Of a stretch of 16,822 bases of DNA, positions 1-9,371 are shown in pieces. Each line of letters opens with the position of its first letter. The first letter of the stretch is position 1. Position numbers and translations under genes: made by a program. The stretch is from a virus (Duplodnaviria > Heunggongvirae > Uroviricota > Caudoviricetes). The stretch lies in IMG/VR virus record IMGVR_UViG_2585427743_000008, one strand, 5' to 3'. The notes beneath the pieces were generated by a model that was not told the origin of the DNA, did no database searches, and worked only from the letters and a program-made list of their open reading frames with translations.

Positions 1-1559
1 CAGATCAACTTTCCAGGGCAACAGATCGCGTACCCGGTTTGCCGGCCAGTCCTGGATATGTTCAATGACGTAACGCAGCCACTTTTCTGGCTCCACATTG
101 TTCAGACGGCATGTGCCGATCAGCGAGTACAACACCGCCGCATGTTCACCACCGCTGTCGGAACCCGCGAACATCCAGTTTTTCCGGCCTACGGCCACTC
201 CCCGTAAGGCGTTCTCTGCGATGTTGTTGTCGATTTCCACCCAGCCATTACTGCAGTACACGTTCAGTGCATCCCACTGTTTCAGCAGGTATGCGAACGC
301 TTTTGCCGTATCTGAGTGACGCGACAGTGTTTTCATCTGTTGCTGTATCCAGTCATACAGTGACTGCATCAGTGGCGCGGCTCTGGCTTTTCTTGCCGCC
401 AGACGCTGTTCTGCTGAACAGCCCCGGACCTCTGCCTCGATGGCATACAGTTCACCGATACGCTGCAGGGCTTCCGTGGTGATGTAGGTGGGCGCTCTTG
501 CATGCACATCGTGGATTTTTCTCCGGGCATGAGCCATACACGCGGCTTCCGTTATTCTGCCGGATTCGTATAACGCCCGGTAACCACCGTAAGCATCGGC
601 CTGAAGCACACCGCTGTAACCGGCCGGTGATTTTGTGGATGGATACCTTTCCGGTCCGGACTGTACGCGAACCAGACCGCCGGGGGCATCTGTGAACCGG
701 CGTTACGGTCATCACGGACGTAGACCCACAGCCGGGCTGTCCGGGTTTTACCGCTGCCCGGCTCCTGGACCGGGACGGGGATATCATCAGCATGGACTTT
801 ACCGGGCATCAGCACATACTGGCGCAGGACGTCATACAGCGGCTCCAGCAGTTCAGCAACAGCACCTGTCCAGCGCCCCAGTGTGGCACGGCTCAGCTCC
901 ACTCCCTGACGACGGTATATTTCTGACTGGCGGTATAACGGCAGATGGTCTGCATATTTCCCGGTGACAACATGGGCCAGAAGCCCCGCTCCGGCATAAC
1001 TGCGTGCAATGGGTTTTGAAGGTACTGGTGCCTGCACGATATGGTCGCACCGGCAACAGGCCTGTTTCGGACGTTGTGTTTCGATAACCTTAAAGGCGCT
1101 GCTGATAAGCTCCAGTTGCTCTGACACATCACATCCCAGAGAACTGAGTTCACCACCACAGGCAGGACAGCATTCCTCTTCCGGCCGGATAACCCGGGTT
1201 TCACGGGGAAGTGAGGCCGGTAACGGTTTACGGGCTGAAGACTGGCGCAGGGCGGATGGCAGTACCGGGTCATATTGCTCACCCAGCGTTTCCGCCATTT
1301 CTTCCTGAAGTGCGCTGATTCGCTCCTGTGCTTCCTGTATCTGCCGTTCGGTTTTTGCACGAAGTTTTTCTGAGCTTTTACCGAACTGCATACGTTGCAG
1401 TTTCGCAACCAGCGCCTTCAGCCGGTTGATTTCGGAAGCATAAGCCGCCACCCGCTGTGAGAGCAGGCGGTTGTATTCAGCCATCTGGCGGATGGTGTCC
1501 TGTTGCGTCTGCAACAGTGCCCGCAGGCGGGCGTTCTCATGAGCAAGTGAGGTGTCCAT
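1..1559 (-). pseudogene. IS66-family transposase TnpC, disrupted by an apparent single-base frameshift near 620-635; C-terminus lies beyond base 1
   Basis: ORF 552-1559 encodes the TnpC N-terminal region (leucine-zipper-like start, CxxC...CxxC zinc-finger-like segment ECCPACGG...CCRCDH) and ends shortly after ...[16 protein letters not shown]. The conserved continuation (...[21 protein letters not shown]...[30 protein letters not shown]...) is in a different frame from ~626 down to base 1. Confidence 0.75.
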
Positions 1560-1578
1560 ATCCTCACTTTACAACGGG

Positions 1579-1926
1579 TTATATGCGGATTCCAGCGCGT
1601 TCCGTTCGTTTCGGGTGCTTCCAGTTGATACCTTCAAGAAGCATGGATAACTGAGCCGGAGTAAGGTGCACCTTGCCGTCACGGGTGACTGGCCAGACGA
1701 AGCGGCCCCGCTCCAGGCGTTTGGTGAAGAGGCACAGTCCGTCACTGTCAGCCCACAACACTTTTATCTGGTCACCCCGGCGTCCGCGGAAGATGAACAG
1801 GTGTCCGGAGAACGGGTCATCCTTCAGGACGTTCTGAACTTTTGATGCCAGGCCGTTAAAGCCATTTCGCATATCGGTGATACCTGCAACCAGCCAGATA
1901 CGCGAACCTGCAGGGAGAGATATCAT
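1579..1926 (-). CDS. IS66-family accessory protein TnpB (Orf2)
   Basis: 115-aa ORF of typical size and position for IS66 Orf2; start overlaps the tnpA stop by one base. Confidence 0.88.
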   Translation of the reverse strand: MISLPAGSRIWLVAGITDMRNGFNGLASKVQNVLKDDPFSGHLFIFRGRRGDQIKVLWADSDGLCLFTKRLERGRFVWPVTRDGKVHLTPAQLSMLLEGINWKHPKRTERAGIRI

Positions 1927-2603
1927 CAGTGGCTGCTCCCTTTTATTTCGCGGATAAGTGTCTGTAATAACGCCGGCGTCAGTTTACCTTTAAGCCTGAG
2001 AGTTCCGGCCGGCAGAACCAGCTCACAACACAGACTGTCGGGCGGGGTATTTATCTGCTCTGGTTCCTGTGCGGGGGCCGGGATTTTATTATCCGGCTCC
2101 GGCGTTAACGTCACGGGAAGCAGTGCCGGCATATTTTTTCCGGAAGGCAGCAGGCCACCTTTCCGGTATTGATGGCGCCAGTTGAAGAGCAGGTTATCGT
2201 TGATTCCGTTTTCCCGGGCGATCTGCGCCACACAGGCTCCGGGCTGCAGTGACTGCTCCACTAAGGCGATTTTAAACTCATAAGGGAAGTTGGGCCGCCG
2301 GGGACGTTTTTTTACCACGGGGGCTTCGGATATAACGGTGCTTTCAGGACGTACGACTGGTACCGTGGAAAATTGTCCGTAAAGGCAGGCATCAAGTTCC
2401 TGCTCCGACATGCCTGCGGGCAAAGGCCACGAAAGGCCAGCTCTCCGAAAGCGCACGAACATACTACAAACAGTTGATTTTGGTACACCCAGGCGACGCC
2501 CGGCCACAACCCGGGGTAAATGTTCTTCAAAGTGAAGACGTAAAGCTTCAGTGATCCAGGTCCGGTGTTTCATACGATAGTGTCCATTAAAAATGATGGA
2601 CAT
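1926..2603 (-). CDS. IS66-family TnpA (Orf1) with an N-terminal extension carrying an extra HTH-like segment
   Basis: The C-terminal half (...FPYEFKIALVEQSLQPGACVAQIARENGINDNLLFNWRHQYRKG...) resembles the IS66 Orf1 HTH. At 225 aa it is longer than I expect for Orf1; an alternative start at MKHRTW (2573) is possible. Confidence 0.75.
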   Translation of the reverse strand: MSIIFNGHYRMKHRTWITEALRLHFEEHLPRVVAGRRLGVPKSTVCSMFVRFRRAGLSWPLPAGMSEQELDACLYGQFSTVPVVRPESTVISEAPVVKKRPRRPNFPYEFKIALVEQSLQPGACVAQIARENGINDNLLFNWRHQYRKGGLLPSGKNMPALLPVTLTPEPDNKIPAPAQEPEQINTPPDSLCCELVLPAGTLRLKGKLTPALLQTLIREIKGSSH

Positions 2604-2639
2604 TATTTTTGTAGAGCCGGAGGAAACAGACCAGACGGT

Positions 2640-3158
2640 TTAAATGAGCCGGTTACGTGTCACCTGCAAGATGTATTCATGCTCGACAGCCAGGACACGC
2701 TTCTCTTTCTTCCGTTCGTTCATTAACCGACTGCCGATCGTACCTTTCAGCTTTGAGCGTGTTTCTTTGATGGCGTAGCGGTGCTGCATTTCTTCGCCAA
2801 TTGCCATGCGGCGGCTCAGTTGTTCTGCCATCCAGTTGAATGCTGCGATATAGCTCTCCTTGATTGCCGCAGCAGCTTTCCCGGTGAACCCCATCACAAC
2901 CATGATCCAGCCATCTTTCGTCAGGCTGTACATCGGGCGAACCTTGCCCTGCTCATCGATATAATCAGCCGACGCAAAATTGCGTTGGCTAAACTCACGC
3001 GAGCAATCAGCCTTAACCTGCTCGATTTTCCTGAGAACATCACCGTGTCGCTTGCCGAAGTACTTGGCAATTTTTCTGGATGTGGTAACGACCTCTCCGT
3101 TTTTGGCTTGCACCATTTCTCGGAAGTCGAAGGCTGGAATAACTGAATGATTATTCAT
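2640..3158 (-). CDS. phage regulatory protein, Rha-like (antirepressor-type)
   Basis: Start taken at the internal MNNHSV (ATG 3158-3156), preceded by an AAGG-containing RBS; the 253-aa track ORF has an implausible N-terminal extension. The N-terminal region (VTTSRKIAKYFGKRHGDVLRKIE...MYSLTKDGWIMVVMGFTGKAA) looks like the Rha domain. The 3' end abuts the IS66 element and may be altered by it. Confidence 0.6.
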   Translation of the reverse strand: MNNHSVIPAFDFREMVQAKNGEVVTTSRKIAKYFGKRHGDVLRKIEQVKADCSREFSQRNFASADYIDEQGKVRPMYSLTKDGWIMVVMGFTGKAAAAIKESYIAAFNWMAEQLSRRMAIGEEMQHRYAIKETRSKLKGTIGSRLMNERKKEKRVLAVEHEYILQVTRNRLI

Positions 3159-3500
3159 AGCGTCTTTACCTTTTAGAAAGTGAGCCTGTCTCACAGAAAA
3201 GCCGCCCGAGAGAGGTCGCCACCTATAACGGCATTTCTCAGGCTCGCTTACTGAAAGGCTCTCGTTAATATGCGCGTGAGATGCGCTGTGAAATTCAGAT
3301 ATAAAAAGCCCCGCGAATGCGAGGCTAAATCCTGGTATTTGTAATGAACTGGCTCTTATCTCAACGCAGCCCCTTACTGCGCGCCAGATGCTCAATATCA
3401 AGCATCAGCAATGAGATGTTTAATCTGGATTTACTCCAGAAGTGATCACCACCCTGTCTACAGAGCCAGATGTGAAGGATGATGAGTAAAATTATCGCTA

Positions 3501-3968
3501 TCATCGAAGGCATTGCGTCCTAATGTATTCCTGAAGCGTTCTCAGTGCTGTTTGGTCGCGGATAATTCCGTCCCGGATATCGAGAACGTTTCGTCCAGCA
3601 ACTGGAGAGAGTTCGACGGTGGCATCATTGCCCATGCCGGAGGCGCTGGAGGTTTCGGCAGAGGATGGCACAGGGCATTTTCCTTTGACGAGCACCCTGC
3701 CACCATTATCAAGCTTCCGCAGAAGAGCATCATTTTCAGCTTTCGCATCAGCTAACTCCTTCGTGTATTTTGCATCGAGCGCAGCAACATCACGCTGACG
3801 CATCTGCATGTCAGTAATTGCCGCGTTCGCCAGCTTCAGTTCTCTGACATTTTTGTCGCGCTGGGCTTTGTAGGTAATGGCGTTATCACGGTAATGATTA
3901 ACAGCCCATGACAGGCAGACGATGATGCAGATAACCAGAGCGGAGATAATCGCGGTTACTCTGTTCAT
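3501..3968 (-). CDS. rzpD: Rz i-spanin (lambdoid lysis cassette)
   Basis: N-terminal signal-anchor followed by a coiled-coil-rich region, closely resembling lambda/phage 21 Rz ([68 protein letters not shown]...). Start ATG overlaps the endolysin stop (ATGA). Confidence 0.85.
3542..3748 (-). CDS. rzoD: Rz1 o-spanin lipoprotein, embedded in the +1 frame of Rz
   Basis: 68-aa ORF wholly inside Rz in another frame, with a lipobox (VAGC) and a Pro-rich segment ([11 protein letters not shown]), the classic Rz1 signature. Confidence 0.75.
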
Positions 3969-4462
3969 TGCTGACCCCACAAACAGATTTCACGCTCAAT
4001 CTCACGACGAGTCATGAGACCTTTCCATTGCTTACCGCCAGCATATGTCCAGCGACGTAGCTGATCACATGCGCCTTTGATATCGCCCTGGTTTATTTTG
4101 CGAAGAAGCGTCGATGTTCTGAAATTGCCAGCACCCACGTTGTAAACGAATGAGTAAAGAGCGCCGCGCATTGTTTCCGGTATATCGACTTTGATGTACG
4201 GGTTAATTTGTCTGGCGACCGTGGCAAGGTCTTTATTCAGGAGGGCTTTGCATTCTGCTTTGGTATACGTTTTACCGAGCATGATGTCTTTTCCTGTATG
4301 CCCGTGACATACAGTCCATACACCAACAATATCTTTGTATGGTATGTAGCTGACACCTTCCAGACCATCGTTACCACTTGGGCCAGTAATTAACACTGAT
4401 GCTATAGCAATTGCTCCGCCACCAATAGCAGCAGCAACGGCTTTTCGTAATGATGGAGGCAT
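3965..4462 (-). CDS. rrrD: SAR endolysin (phage 21 R-like lysozyme)
   Basis: 165-aa ORF with a Gly/Ala-rich weakly hydrophobic N-terminal SAR segment ([20 protein letters not shown]) followed by a lysozyme-like domain; one-base overlap with the holin stop. Confidence 0.9.
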
Positions 4463-4677
4463 TATTCACCTCTCGCAGCCTTGCGCTTATCTTCTTTAAT
4501 CTTGAAATAAAGGTTTGTCAGGTACGTCAGCAGGCCAAATACCAGGCTACCCAGCACACCTATTGCTGCCCACTGTGAGGGCGTGACTTTATCGAGCAGC
4601 TGTAAAAACCAGTAACCGGCACTACCTGCTGAGGTGCCATAGGCGACACCCGTTGTTAACTTATCCATGGATTTCAT
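4462..4677 (-). CDS. essD: pinholin (phage 21 S-like holin) with dual-start motif
   Basis: Start taken at MKSMDKL (Met1 and Met4 dual start as in S21); two TM segments and a charged C-terminus ([13 protein letters not shown]). The track ORF starts 15 codons further upstream (4722). Confidence 0.85.
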
Positions 4678-4802
4678 AACCCCACCTCGCAGACAAAGCG
4701 GGTGTAAATTGAGGGAATACAACGTATCGCAAAAAAGCAGAAACGTAACAGACTCGGAGTCAGTGAATAACTCAGGTATTGGGTTATCAGCTAATATCGA
4801 GA

Positions 4803-4838
4803 CTCAAAAAATGGAAAAACCCGCTCGACGGCGGGTTT
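4803..4838 (-). terminator. intrinsic terminator on the minus strand upstream of the holin; candidate tR'-like element of the late region
   Basis: 8-bp GC-rich stem AAACCCGC / GCGGGTTT (4817-4824 and 4831-4838) with a 6-nt loop; on the minus strand it is followed by TTCCATTTTTTGAG. Confidence 0.5.
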
Positions 4839-5264
4839 AAGCTGTGTGACGAAGTAACCACTCTTAACAGCATAACCAATTTTTTACGTACGTAAACCAC
4901 TAAATGATATTTGCGAGAATGCTACCGAGTATTGAAAACACCACTACAAATACATAAGCAAATCTCAACAAATAACCAACAAATAATTTCCAGCGTTATT
5001 TTTAGCTGGTTTAAATTGAATCTTCAAATTATAGAGCACTTATAAATAACAGCCATTAATATAAATTGGCTAATAGATTTATTTTTATTCAGCCAAGAGC
5101 CATGAATAGGATTCGATAGAAAAAGTTCAGATAAAAATAGAGATCTACTTCACAAATCAAATGAGAAACCAAAACTTACATCTTGAAATAATCACATTGA
5201 TTAGATGAATATTTATCGCGCAGTGACATCATTTTTTAATAATAGTTCAAAAAAAGGGCTCACG

Positions 5265-6347
5265 ATGAAAAAATTAACAGTGGCAATTTCTGCTGTAGCT
5301 GCATCAGTACTGATGGCGATGTCTGCTCAGGCAGCTGAAATTTATAATAAAGACAGTAACAAGCTGGATCTGTACGGGAAAGTTAATGCTAAGCACTACT
5401 TCTCCTCTAATGATGCAGATGATGGTGATACTACTTATGCCCGTCTTGGCTTCAAAGGTGAAACCCAAATCAACGATCAACTGACTGGTTTCGGTCAGTG
5501 GGAATATGAATTCAAAGGCAACCGCGCTGAATCTCAAGGTTCCTCCAAAGATAAAACCCGTCTTGCCTTCGCTGGCCTGAAATTCGGTGACTACGGCTCC
5601 ATCGATTATGGCCGTAACTACGGTGTAGCATACGATATTGGTGCATGGACCGACGTTCTGCCAGAATTCGGTGGCGATACCTGGACCCAAACAGATGTAT
5701 TCATGACTGGTCGCACCACAGGTGTTGCAACTTATCGTAACAATGACTTCTTTGGTCTGGTTGATGGTCTGAACTTTGCTGCTCAGTATCAGGGTAAAAA
5801 TGACCGCACTGACGTAACTGAAGCTAATGGTGATGGTTTCGGTTTCTCCACTACTTATGAGTATGAAGGATTCGGTGTAGGTGCAACCTATGCTAAATCT
5901 GACCGCACTAATAATCAGGTTATCTACGGTAACAACAGCCTGAATGCATCTGGTCAAAATGCTGAAGTATGGGCAGCTGGTCTGAAATATGATGCGAACA
6001 ACATCTATCTGGCTACCACCTATTCTGAAACCCAGAACATGACTGTTTTTGGTAATAACCATATTGCCAACAAAGCACAAAACTTCGAAGCTGTTGCACA
6101 ATATCAGTTCGACTTCGGCCTGCGTCCATCCGTTGCTTACCTGCATTCTAAAGGAAAAGACTTGGGTGTTTGGGGTGATCAGGACCTGGTTGAATATGTT
6201 GATGTAGGTGCAACCTATTACTTCAACAAAAATATGTCCACTTTTGTTGACTACAAAATCAACCTGATTGATAAGAGCGATTTCACGAAAGCATCTGGCG
6301 TTGCTACCGATGATATCGTTGCTGTAGGTATGGTTTACCAGTTCTAA
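5265..6347 (+). CDS. nmpC: general bacterial porin, prophage-associated NmpC/OmpD-like
   Basis: Start taken at [23 protein letters not shown] (Sec signal, AQA cleavage), RBS AAGGG upstream; porin hallmarks include the C-terminal aromatic residue (...VYQF). The 20-codon upstream extension in the track ORF is unlikely. Confidence 0.9.
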
Positions 6348-6362
6348 TTTGATTACTAAAAG

Positions 6363-6445
6363 ATATGTTGTGGGGGGCTTTGCCTCCCCAACATATAAGT
6401 GGCTCCCTCAAGCCACTTCCTTTAGAAGCACAACCTTGCTTCTAA
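6363..6445. other. three consecutive stem-loops in the porin-Q intergenic region
   Basis: Hairpin A 6363-6396 (ATATGTTG...CAACATAT flanking a G-rich core), hairpin B 6397-6418 (AAGTGGCT / AGCCACTT), hairpin C 6422-6445 (TTAGAAGCA / TGCTTCTAA). Confidence 0.45.
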
Positions 6446-6483
6446 CTATACAAACCTTCTGTTATATATTACCCTTTATTTTT

Positions 6484-6518
6484 GGGGGCGTTTCAACGCC
6501 CCATTTTTAATAACTTTT
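6484..6518 (+). terminator. intrinsic terminator, plus strand
   Basis: GGGGCG-TTTCAA-CGCCCC stem-loop followed by ATTTTTAATAACTTTT. Confidence 0.5.
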
Positions 6519-6535
6519 AGTAAATAATTGGCGTA

Positions 6536-6919
6536 TTAATTAGAGTTATTAACAACGATATCCATCTCTAACCGGATATCTAATGCCATTAACATCCCTT
6601 CAATTATGCCCTCAGCCTTCTGTAACCTTTTCCCGATATAACCATCAGAGCAGCAATGCTTACCTGCCAGTGACATGAATGTCATACCGACTACATAATA
6701 ATCTACTAATAAATCGTGCAAATCGCTGTTGTTCTTTTTCAGACGGGCCATGCACCCGCAAATGATCATCGCGTCATCGTCACAACATTGCGGGCGAGAT
6801 TTTACTTTTGAAGTAATTAATCCCTTAAAACCGGCGGCAATGGACGACCAGGTCACATCTTCATGATTATTAGCCGCCCACGCTCCCCAACGCTCAAGAA
6901 CCATCTGAATATCACGCAT
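6536..6919 (-). CDS. quuD: late-gene antiterminator Q (DLP12 QuuD-like)
   Basis: Start taken at [22 protein letters not shown]... (127 aa), recalled as matching the DLP12 Q-family antiterminator; Cys-rich segment ([16 protein letters not shown]) consistent with Q zinc binding. Sits upstream of the lysis genes on the same strand. Confidence 0.75.
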
Positions 6920-7004
6920 CAACTTACTCCACAAAAATCAGACCAGAACGCCAATTACAAGCAAAAATCAACAAAACAGTATTAGTTGATTGTTATCTCT
7001 GACT

Positions 7005-7145
7005 TCATACTCCTGCTCCTGTCAGGGTTTTGGCGTAATTCTTCAGTATTCGGTAATCGGTCAAAACAGAACCGGGGAAACGATATAAGCGCAGACGCCC
7101 CCAGCGGTGGCGAAGACGTCCTGCCATATAAAACTCAAACATCAT
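7005..7145 (-). CDS. ylcG: small prophage protein YlcG-like (46 aa)
   Basis: Below the ORF-track cutoff; found by translating the minus strand ([46 protein letters not shown]). Start ATG overlaps the rusA stop (ATGA). Confidence 0.6.
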
Positions 7146-7504
7146 TCATTCCCCATTTCGGTGATGGTCAGTTCCAGCCTCCCACCTTTGGTAACAGGCA
7201 TCTTCACAACGCGGTAATCAACGACCTGAGCATCATCCAGCCAGAAACCTGCTTTAGTGAGTGCGTCAAAAGCGGCTTTTTGCAGATTATCCAGGTCACG
7301 GCGACGGCGATCCGGCATGTGGCACTCAATGCGGATTTTCACAGGCATAGCCAGGCCGATATCCAGCATTGCGTTTTTAATGATTCGGGCGACGTTATCG
7401 CGGTATGCCTGCCCCTCTGCGCTGACGTGCGTGCGCCCGCGATTATGGCGGTAATAGCGATTATTGCTCGGAGGCCAGGGTAATGTGATGCTGTAGGTAT
7501 TCAC
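7142..7504 (-). CDS. rusA: Holliday junction resolvase RusA
   Basis: 120-aa [49 protein letters not shown]..., recalled as essentially the DLP12 RusA sequence; ATGA coupling with ybcO. Confidence 0.9.
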
Positions 7505-7791
7505 GCCTTAATAACCCCCTCTTTCAGCCAGATAACCTGTGTTCTCGCCATACCTTCCAGCGCGCATTCTTTTGCATATGCAGCATCGACAAAATGAGTG
7601 CGGCGGTCGATTTCGTCGTGGCAGGCAGAACATGCAATGGTGGCAATCAGGTCTGGCGGTTTCGTACCGGTGCCGCACAATCCAGTCAGCCGGATATGTG
7701 CCAGTACAGACGTTTCAGGGTTGCCATTACATACGCCAGGGATTCTTACCTGGCATTCCCGACCACGCGCTGCTTTTCTCAAATCAGCCAT
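7501..7791 (-). CDS. ybcO: YbcO-like prophage protein (DUF1364, Cys-rich putative nuclease)
   Basis: Start taken at [15 protein letters not shown]... with a strong SD (GGAGGAG) 5 nt upstream; 8-nt overlap with ninE. Confidence 0.8.
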
Positions 7792-7954
7792 GACTCCTCC
7801 TTGCTGCCAGTCGCAACCATTTTTTATCAACCAGGCTGGCGGTATATCCGAGCAGTGTTGGTATTTCGGATGGCTTCAGCTCAGGTTTACGCTTACGACG
7901 ATTTGGTACTCTGTAGATGTGTCCGTTCATGACACGAATAAGCGGTGTAGCCAT
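7784..7954 (-). CDS. ninE: NinE-like prophage protein
   Basis: 56-aa product [37 protein letters not shown]... in the nin-region position; start overlaps the ybcN stop by one base. Confidence 0.75.
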   Translation of the reverse strand: MATPLIRVMNGHIYRVPNRRKRKPELKPSEIPTLLGYTASLVDKKWLRLAARRSHG

Positions 7955-8409
7955 TACGCCTCCTGCTTGTCGCGCAGCAGCTGGAACTCGCAGCTCTGTG
8001 GAATAGTCAGGTGGCAACCAATATTCATCGCCCAGGCTTCAACCTTACACAGGAAGACATACATCTCTCCGGTATCAAGATCGGAGGTATGGCGTAACGA
8101 CTGGATAGTGGTGATATCACCGGTTACGACATCAACCAGGTCTTTGGTTTCATAACCGAGATATGTGTGTTTGAGAGCATCTTTTACCCAAGCTGGAGTG
8201 GCGAACGTTTTACCCCTGCTGATGAGGTATTCACTGATTTCGCTGTACCACATGTGGCTGAGTGCATTCTGGGAAAGACTGCGTCTCTCGCACCACGGTT
8301 TAAGCACCATGCGAAAGCATTTGCCTTCCTCCAGATAAGGCTGGATCTGCTGGCCGATAGCGGTGAAGTTGCCGCGATGTAATTTGATGCCGTCTTGTGG
8401 GAGGTTCAC
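7954..8409 (-). CDS. ybcN: NinB/YbcN-like recombination-associated protein
   Basis: 151-aa ORF with a NinB-like core (...[22 protein letters not shown]...) at the head of the nin-like gene run. Confidence 0.8.
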
Positions 8410-8672
8410 GCTTCACCTCCGCAGAGGTCAAACGCTAGATGCAAAGAATTGCAGGTGCATTTCTGCATCTGTGAAAGGAGAAGATAGTTTGGATTGTATG
8501 TGCGCATAAACGTCCCCGTTTAGCGCAGAAGTCACCGGAGTTGTTCAGACTCCGATTACTTAATTATGGCAAGTTGATTATCGCAAATCAAAGGTTTTAA
8601 TTGTGCTTTATTCTTTCAAGCGTTTCCTTCATACCAAAGCCTATAAAGTTTTTCTTCTTCGTTTGGGTTAAT

Positions 8673-8705
8673 GTAAGCGTCAACGGAGCACCGTATTGAC
8701 GCTTA
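8673..8705. repeat. candidate IS66-family terminal inverted repeat with internal 10-bp palindrome
   Basis: GTAAGCGTCAACGGAGCACCGTATTGACGCTTA: begins GTAAGCG, sits at the outer end of the transposase C-terminal fragment, and contains TAAGCGTCAA / TTGACGCTTA separated by 12 nt. Confidence 0.4.
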
Positions 8706-9371
8706 TTTATTGGTGAGTACTACGTTCCATGGCAGGAGTTCGTCAACACGGTTGGAGGGCCATTCCGGCAGTACGCTCAGAATATGGCGCAGATACGCTT
8801 CCGGATCGATACCGTTCAGTCGGCAGGTGCCGATCAGCCCGTACAGCAGTGCTCCACGCTCGCCGCCGTGATCGCTACCGAAGAACACGTAATTTTTCTT
8901 TCCGAGACAGACTGCACGAAGCGCTCTTTCCGCTGTGTTATTGTCCACCTCCGCCAGACCGTCATCACTGTAATAACAGAGGGCGTCCCACACAGCCTGA
9001 CGTTTGACTTCTGGTTCAAAGGGCGCAACCGGACTGGTCTTACTGGTAAATATACGTCGTCTGCCGGGATAAAGTTCATTAACCCAGCGAGCGAGCACAT
9101 CAGTGCAGGGATAACCCAGGGCTCTGCTGGTAAACGCCAGGCAGCAGCCGTGGTTAAGATAATGTTCAACGGCAACCTGTTTTTGCTCATCGGAGTAACG
9201 GTGCTTATGACGAATGGATTCTTTTGCGCCATCACCTGCTTTCCATGAACGGATCCAACGCCGCAGATTTCTTTTCGAAGGGTAGCCCGGCTCGCGTACG
9301 ACGAGAGCCAGCTTCTTACCATATTTGAAATAAAGCTCAATGGTGCGGATTTTTTCTTCCTCCGTAAACAT
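8703..9371 (-). pseudogene. chimeric ORF: IS66-family transposase C-terminal fragment (~8703-9000) fused in frame to an unrelated N-terminal double-HTH transposase-like segment (~9000-9371)
   Basis: The C-terminal ~100 aa ([89 protein letters not shown]) aligns by eye with the IS66 TnpC C-terminus seen at 1-450 but is clearly divergent. The N-terminal ~120 aa (MFTEEEKIRTIELYFKYGKK...RNLRRWIRSW...) is not IS66 TnpC-like. Confidence 0.6.

Follow-up and report, generated by a model that had tools for sequence, protein, structure and literature searches.

The viral record IMGVR_UViG_2585427743_000008, a stretch of 16,822 nucleotides (nt) assigned to the Caudoviricetes and called the window here at its full length, carries a Q-type antiterminator gene, an outer membrane porin gene and phage lysis genes between sequences of the insertion sequence (IS) family IS66. 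This arrangement raises the question of whether the phage DNA is the remnant of a defective prophage, as an initial annotation made from the letters alone had proposed, whether it was moved beside plasmid genes, or whether it is an ordinary part of a temperate phage, and what a porin is doing between its regulatory and lysis genes. We conclude with high confidence that the phage-derived DNA, a lambdoid late region at window positions 2657-8672 (6,016 bp, with genes mostly on the minus strand), is one piece of the region for late control and lysis in a lambda-like temperate phage, with a module of the DLP12/PA-2/phage-21 type. A module of this kind, in which Q, a porin with the small RNA (sRNA) IpeX, and lysis genes of a lambdoid phage follow one another, is already known and ordinary. 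The limits of the phage DNA first given as 2640-8410 had to be redrawn: position 2640 is the stop of the rha open reading frame (ORF), whose last 17 nt stem from the end of an ISCro1 element, and beyond ybcN the phage DNA runs on via ylcH (8406-8507) up to 8672. The window itself is a whole draft contig, JORE01000030.1 of assembly GCA_000713015.1, and ends in ISCro1 on one side and in IS3 on the other.

Gene content of the phage segment

On the minus strand the genes follow each other in the order ylcH-ybcN-ninE-ybcO-rusA-ylcG-quuD, then comes a porin gene on the plus strand, and then essD, rrrD, Rz/Rz1, an ORF of 50 residues and rha. They were identified from the ORF map, from family searches and by comparison with 11 proteins of the annotated DLP12 region of Escherichia coli K-12 MG1655; the fractions given below are identical residues in that comparison.

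7005-8507, minus strand: nin-region block ylcH to ylcG (Pfam and NCBIfam matches, overlapping starts and stops)
8507-8406, minus strand: ylcH (ORF map, Pfam/NCBIfam block; K-12 YlcH 31/33)
8409-7954, minus strand: ybcN (Pfam/NCBIfam; K-12 YbcN 147/151)
7954-7784, minus strand: ninE (Pfam/NCBIfam; K-12 NinE 56/56)
7791-7501, minus strand: ybcO (Pfam/NCBIfam; K-12 YbcO 95/96)
7504-7142, minus strand: rusA (Pfam/NCBIfam; K-12 RusA 120/120)
7145-7005, minus strand: ylcG (Pfam/NCBIfam; K-12 YlcG 43/46)
6536-6919, minus strand: quuD, Q-type late antiterminator (Pfam Phage_antitermQ, E 3.5e-53; K-12 QuuD 127/127)
6348-6514, plus strand: porin 3' untranslated region (UTR), putative IpeX counterpart (167 nt, four hairpins, inferred boundaries)
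5265-6347, plus strand: general porin of the NmpC/Lc/OmpD type (Pfam Porin_1, E 1e-152, profile positions 1-337 of 337)
4815-4870, minus strand: conserved terminator-like hairpin with U-run (terminator scan match 4838-4817)
4462-4677, minus strand: essD, S21-type pinholin (Pfam "Bacteriophage P21 holin S" PF04971, E 2e-35, full length; K-12 EssD 71/71)
3965-4462, minus strand: rrrD-type signal-anchor-release (SAR) endolysin (165/165 residues identical to PDB 3HDE; K-12 RrrD 163/165)
3501-3968, minus strand: Rz, i-spanin (Pfam Phage_lysis PF03245, E 6.6e-31; K-12 Rz 100/155)
3748-3542, minus strand: Rz1, o-spanin lipoprotein (Pfam Rz1 PF06085, E 7.6e-19; K-12 Rz1 27/68)
3361-3513, minus strand: hydrophobic ORF of 50 residues (hypothetical protein in RefSeq and phage records)
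2640-3158, minus strand: rha-family regulator (Pfam Phage_pRha, E 2.3e-28)

The genes named in the initial annotation, their order and their orientation are all present as it described. Its DLP12-type assignment is likewise borne out, as nine of the 11 proteins, those of ylcH to quuD, essD and rrrD, are 93-100% identical to their K-12 counterparts. At the DNA level, window positions 3724-8592 are 93-98% identical to K-12, and left of 3724 no K-12 DNA match was found. The segment is colinear with DLP12 in order and orientation, holds an opposite-strand porin gene in the same slot and shares 96% identity with it in the spacer between porin and Q. On the other side, DLP12 has borD after its lysis genes, whereas the segment has rha and the 50-residue ORF there, and Rz1 together with the C-terminal part of Rz represents another allele than in DLP12, so that neither the Rz/Rz1 allele nor the downstream borD of DLP12 was found here. 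A further difference is that nmpC of DLP12 carries IS5, whereas the porin gene of the segment is intact and free of it. The segment is a mosaic and not DLP12 itself.

Both gene blocks are tightly packed, with eight overlapping junctions in all. In the nin-region block these are GTGA, TAATG, an overlap of 8 nt, GTGA and ATGA, and in the lysis block TAATG, ATGA and an overlap of 13 nt; the earlier description of ATGA-type overlaps thus holds as a general pattern and is too narrow for the individual junctions. All lysis, Q and porin reading frames are intact and the porin domain is full length, in agreement with the earlier claim of intact porin and lysis genes. The earlier gene list lacked rha, the 50-residue ORF, ylcH and the structured porin 3' UTR at 6348-6514. 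The 50-residue ORF has no Pfam or NCBIfam match; it is conserved, shares 13 nt with the end of Rz and may code for a small membrane protein that belongs to the lysis region. A tRNA scan found no tRNA genes, and searches of Rfam at gathering and at permissive thresholds returned only a sub-threshold Trp-leader-like match (E 0.4) at 4811-4933, over the terminator, which we treated as a chance match.

The segment was also searched for in 5426 complete E. coli genomes, with a query that included short IS-derived ends. Some part of the query matched in 5309 of them and at least 80% of it was found in one place in 155. Since matches are so common, the gene pattern is not a product of chance.

Among the closest known counterparts of the lysis genes is the cassette of phage 21 (S21 pinholin, R21 SAR endolysin, Rz/Rz1). 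EssD (about 71 residues) belongs to the P21 holin family and begins with MKSMDK, which provides the Met1/Met4 dual start. RrrD consists of a phage lysozyme domain after an N-terminal Gly/Ala-rich signal-anchor-release segment, is identical over its full length to PDB 3HDE and also matches PDB 4ZPU, "Lysozyme RrrD" (E 4.6e-111). We take 3HDE to be the phage 21 endolysin; its chain label reads "Lysozyme" only. The Rz1 gene lies wholly within Rz in another frame and encodes a lipobox (...VAGC). The likeness to phage 21 in holin and endolysin does not extend to the antiterminator, as the Q protein of the segment is distant from the solved Q chains 6JNX and 6P18 (E 7.6e-7), which are presumably Q21. 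For DLP12, the SRRz operon has been reported to be under the control of Q, RpoE and Hha (PMC7918800).

Chromosomal prophages and complete phages with the same module

The closest copy of the segment lies in a lambda-like prophage in the chromosome of enterotoxigenic E. coli (ETEC) strain 120899, from which it differs by two mismatches in about 6 kb. Strains 103605, 204446, ETEC-2265 and TW10722, all among the top search rows, showed equal coverage and about 100% identity. In ETEC 120899 the prophage continues with head genes on one side of the module and with immunity, replication and recombination genes, excisionase and integrase on the other, and its integrase end abuts ybhC, a gene that we take to adjoin the lambda attachment site. 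The module also occurs in complete phages: the complete 48.8-kb record of PhiR70_1 contains it at 98% identity together with int, cI, O/P, head and tail genes, and shares rha and the 50-residue ORF with the segment. Across PhiR70_1, ev243, 4A7, Perceval and other lambda-like records the region from Q through the porin to S is 92-99% identical to the window. These records comprise whole genomes, whereas the phage DNA of the window is only 6 kb long and is enclosed by two IS elements on a draft contig.

Two peculiarities of these prophages may be recorded. Copies of the 120899 type carry an additional IS100 at the place of window 3276-3280, with a 5-bp overlap that is likely a target duplication; this site is uninterrupted in the window. 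In ETEC 120899 a gene annotated as "type VI secretion system-associated protein TagO" lies between ylcH and ren (positions 16748-17242 of the retrieved locus).

The cargo between Q and S

The gap between quuD and essD measures about 1.86 kb and holds the porin cassette on the plus strand. The initial annotation placed the porin there instead of cargo; rather, the porin itself is the cargo, a classic moron. It had also equated this position with the site of the Shiga toxin genes, and the Q-to-S interval is indeed the stx site in Shiga toxin (Stx) phages (PMC8065619). Besides this common slot, Stx phages have S-type holin genes with 82-87% DNA identity to the one in the segment. They differ in that stx points in the direction of late transcription, which drives it, whereas the porin cassette faces the other way and has its own signals. 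Different cargo, likewise on the opposite strand, was found at this site in phage 1H12, where it is the lipocalin gene blc (positions 1802-2326 of the retrieved locus), and in phage cdtI, where it comprises orf53 and orf54 (positions 3580-4968 of the retrieved locus).

The porin has 360 residues; it begins with a signal peptide, contains a PEFGGD motif and ends in Phe. Its description as an NmpC-like porin in opposite orientation was confirmed by comparison with K-12 NmpC, rebuilt from the two fragments on either side of IS5, to which it is identical at 331 of 365 positions (~91%). A comparison of its loops with NmpC had been suggested, and the differences, two indels among them, do cluster in three patches (residues 182-187, 216-231 and 263-267). 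The first two of these lie near gap positions in alignments to OmpK37 and OmpC, and the three variable patches are probably surface loops. The exact porin sequence was found on 518 contigs, and its cluster at 90% identity has 2741 members, for which the source names are OmpD, OmpC and LC, one of them reading "outer membrane porin protein LC". Records of complete phage genomes show the gene in the same place, between quuD and essD on the opposite strand. The K-12 gene nmpC has been described as residing on a defective lambdoid prophage and as usually inactivated by an IS (PMC11677980; PMC3333887), and excision of the IS was reported to reactivate NmpC and to alter beta-lactam permeability (2026 preprint 10.64898/2026.08.19.745717).

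The porin gene is followed by a structured 3' UTR at 6348-6514. It folds with a minimum free energy of -57.6 kcal/mol (z = -7.9 compared with shuffled sequences), and its last hairpin is an intrinsic terminator at 6485-6502 according to the terminator scan. The element is nearly invariant in 80 porin-bearing viral loci, with much of the variation located in hairpin loops such as that of the terminator, and 158 of 165 positions are identical in the nmpC-quuD spacer of K-12. With relatives that are 97-100% identical (the 80 viral loci and K-12), covariation is uninformative; no Rfam family matches the 3' UTR. Reviews describe IpeX as a 167-nt sRNA of DLP12 and phage PA-2 that is processed from the porin transcript and represses OmpC and OmpF (PMC12197685; PMC8065619; PMC7177473). 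The 3' UTR of the segment fits IpeX in position, length and sequence, and because of this fit the cargo would be a two-part lysogenic-conversion cassette, a porin with an sRNA, rather than a porin alone. By description it resembles the lc/IpeX lysogenic-conversion module of the lambdoid phage PA-2, in which one transcript encodes a general porin and gives rise to an sRNA that reduces OmpC and OmpF; for this system PMC11677980, PMC8065619 and PMC12197685 cite Blasband et al. 1986 and Castillo-Keller et al. 2006. At window position 6375 the first hairpin of the 3' UTR reads GGGGGG instead of the GGGAGG of most relatives, which turns a predicted A-U pair into G-U; the ETEC chromosomal copies also differ from the window at this position.

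Candidate signals of late transcription

At the S-side edge of the slot, upstream of the holin gene, positions 4815-4870 form a perfect hairpin with a U-run on the late strand. This 56-bp element recurs with 96% identity in phage cdtI, again between opposite-strand cargo and the late genes. It probably serves as a terminator that guards the lysis genes and is overridden by Q-modified polymerase. Apart from its place in the segment, the element is 95-96% identical in cdtI and in Shigella phage SfIV, where the surroundings are otherwise unrelated, and it is possibly a portable late-operon terminator. In megablast comparisons the match to similar Q genes ends near the end of the Q gene and that to S-type holin genes ends 16 nt upstream of S; the 56-bp terminator upstream of S is the one short element shared with phages that combine a similar Q with other cargo (1H12, cdtI).

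Several observations weigh against reading the segment in this way as a DLP12-type module with a Q-driven late operon and an IpeX-bearing cargo. A strict sigma-70 scan gave no convincing promoter just downstream of quuD, and the phages compared that have an 87%-identical Q share nothing detectable with the segment downstream of Q; by neither the scan nor this comparison could the late promoter and the Q-binding site be located. The boundaries assigned to IpeX are those given in reviews. Finally, Rz1 and the rha side are unlike DLP12, so the term DLP12-type fits the module and not the whole element.

The IS66-family flanks

The presence of IS66-family sequence on both sides of the segment had been noticed at the outset, and it is now assigned to two different elements.

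1-2656, minus strand: ISCro1 (IS66 family; 99.5-99.9% identity to annotated ISCro1 copies)
8673-8991, minus strand: ISEc47 end (IS66 family), C-terminus of tnpC and inverted repeat (100% identical to the last 319 bp)

ISCro1 comprises tnpA (2603-1926), tnpB (1926-1579) and tnpC, which starts at 1559 and runs off the contig end. The element ends 23 bp before the natural stop of rha, so that the junction at 2656/2657 replaces the last rha codons. The exact rha-ISCro1 fusion protein is encoded in two NCBI assemblies and in two Logan read-set assemblies. This junction is real, since a sister assembly shows it as well, as do two independent assemblies of read sets. Within the element, tnpC has a 1-bp deletion at about position 625 relative to the sister contig, which splits its product into pieces of 335 and 179 residues; this could be an inactivation or a sequencing error.

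On the other side the ISEc47 end lies 165 bp beyond ylcH. Its identity is based on strain 602354 and the sister contig, and on Pfam matches to DDE_Tnp_IS66 and IS66_C. The end at 8673 begins GTAAGCGTC, and the gene set tnpA-tnpB-tnpC and GTAA... termini by which IS66-family membership was judged were found. The junction between phage DNA and ISEc47 recurs in the sister contig, where at least 781 bp of the IS follow. In none of the 5426 complete E. coli genomes is either of the two IS/phage junctions contiguous; in APEC17 an ISCro1 lies about 220 bp away and not at the same site. A composite transposon was considered and rejected, as the two sides carry different IS species, what this contig has of the right one is a stump of 319 bp, and the outer ends lie off the contig.

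Strain 602354 carries independent insertions of both elements in this module, an ISCro1 within rha at another site and in another orientation and an ISEc47 within ybcN (positions 3385-5970 and 11483-13938 of the retrieved locus), and IS66-family elements seem to target the phage module repeatedly. The prophage of strain 602354 continues beyond these insertions. Being cut by IS elements on both sides is for that reason no proof that a phage segment is a remnant.

Possible linkage to a plasmid virulence locus

Beyond the ISEc47 end, the contig leads through an IS3-family fragment into genes known from ETEC virulence plasmids.

8992-9450 (9450 approximate), minus strand: piece of the left end of an IS3-family element (up to exactly 8992, DNA 95% identical to a full-length member of the family)
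9526-16134: ETEC virulence-plasmid locus with a cexE-like gene (116 residues, signal peptide end ALA|GG)
10159-11298: aatP
11295-12500: aatA, TolC-like
12457-13230: aatB
13223-13849: aatC, ABC ATPase
16134-14890: aatD, Lnt-like, separate and on the opposite strand

The ALA|GG cleavage motif of CexE-like signal peptides has been described (PMC7943197). ETEC plasmids, for example p899037_1 and pTW10722, match the window almost letter for letter from 8992 to the contig end. Positions 14101-14328, 14722-14871 and 16568-16786 contain plasmid-mosaic debris, including fragments of an msbB/lpxM-type lipid A acyltransferase (75 residues) and of IstB of IS21 (49 residues), and the IS3 end at the right contig end is 98.6% identical to K-12 IS3.

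The best surviving alternative to an ordinary chromosomal prophage module is that the segment was truly moved by IS66-family elements or by recombination to a place beside the cexE-aat plasmid locus, or that the plasmid integrated into the prophage. We consider this unlikely. The contig does read from phage DNA through ISEc47 and IS3 fragments into cexE-aatPABC-aatD, and it depends on the junction at 8991/8992, which joins internal points of two IS elements. Only 2-3 bp are shared there, which argues against a simple collapse of a k-mer repeat, and the point at which IS3 is truncated is the same as in the ETEC reference plasmids. Against this, the junction and the chimeric ORF of 222 residues that spans it (9371-8703), in which the N-terminus of an IS3-family OrfA is fused in frame to the C-terminus of ISEc47 TnpC, were seen in this assembly alone when 153 billion gene positions were searched, the phage/IS junctions are not contiguous in the complete E. 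coli genomes, and in the sister assembly the ISEc47 sequence beside the phage segment measures at least 781 bp and not 319 bp. No record among those listed from PLSDB covers the greater part of the segment at above 95% identity; only short pieces (16-21% of the query) match at 96-99%, and several of the listed matches are chromosome-sized records.

The sequence next to the junction tells against a simple exchange as well. In place of window 8947-8991 (45 bp) the ETEC reference plasmids have a different 36 bp, and they differ by one single-nucleotide polymorphism at 8820. An origin of the 45 bp (36 bp in the plasmids) from IS3 was rejected on the basis of a full-length IS3 relative, and recombination via the shared IS66 remnant of 276 bp was ruled out because the window has ISEc47-type sequence at 8947-8991. 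A crossover within the shared 276 bp could thus not have produced the 45-bp difference, but a mixed consensus in the draft could, so that the join may be either an unusual real rearrangement or such a mixed consensus. Its position beside cexE-aat is the one unusual trait of the phage segment. As the window is a draft contig and its plasmid part hangs on this one junction, both "remnant", with the non-inducibility supposed in the initial annotation, and "plasmid-borne" are unproven labels for the segment.

Origin of the segment and of its porin gene

Decay at argU of the strain's own copy of DLP12, the cryptic K-12 prophage, would explain the gene order and the identities to K-12 proteins and DNA given above. 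We regard such an origin as highly improbable. The closest copy of the segment, with its two mismatches, belongs to a full prophage that has an integrase and an excisionase and lies at ybhC, not at argU. Furthermore, the K-12 match stops left of 3724, rha and the 50-residue ORF stand in for borD, only 27 of 68 Rz1 residues are identical, and the porin gene lacks IS5. That the porin gene is a chromosomal ompC/ompF/phoE paralogue merely located near phage genes can be practically dismissed: automated pipelines do call it OmpC or OmpD and its best NCBIfam model is the OmpC subfamily, but phage and prophage records, complete phage genomes among them, invariably place it between Q and S, it is 91% identical to NmpC with conserved DLP12 flanks, and its scores fall short of the curated thresholds of the equivalog models for PhoE and OmpF.

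Proposed function and biological meaning

In lambdoid phages antitermination by Q drives the expression of S-R-Rz/Rz1. The pinholin depolarises the membrane and frees the SAR endolysin, and the spanins disrupt the outer membrane. For a lambda-like prophage that contains the segment, we infer a corresponding route of late transcription, as well as the expression of porin and IpeX and the function of the latter. Induction of the prophage would lead to transcription of the nin-region genes and quuD, and QuuD would render RNA polymerase resistant to terminators. Late transcription would then run on the minus strand through the cargo of about 1.86 kb, antisense to the porin gene, and past the terminator at ~4838-4817 to reach essD, rrrD and Rz/Rz1, with lysis of the cell as the outcome. 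The cargo would be a self-contained moron on the opposite strand, consisting of an AT-rich upstream region, the porin gene and the 167-nt 3' UTR. In the lysogen the porin would be made from the promoter of the cassette itself, and IpeX, processed from the porin transcript, would lower OmpC and OmpF of the host. Replacement of host porins by the phage porin would in turn change permeability and the receptors for phages and colicins. If ISEc47 truly separates the segment from the immunity and replication region, Q would be without upstream transcription and the lysis genes would be silent.

It is doubtful that an IS66-captured cassette of porin, IpeX and lysis genes lies beside cexE-aatPABC-aatD on an ETEC virulence plasmid or is fused with it; the cassette is linked to the virulence genes only if the junction at 8991/8992 is real. 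If so, a lysogenic-conversion module of a phage would travel with plasmid virulence genes, which would be a modest example of how IS66-family elements shuffle phage cargo beside virulence genes. The join of phage and plasmid DNA calls for verification at the read level before it is interpreted.

Beyond annotation the finding matters little. The label of the locus should read phage NmpC/Lc-type porin with an IpeX 3' UTR and not OmpC. In this ETEC lineage, the intact copy of the porin gene may alter permeability, antibiotic uptake and the receptors available to phages and colicins.

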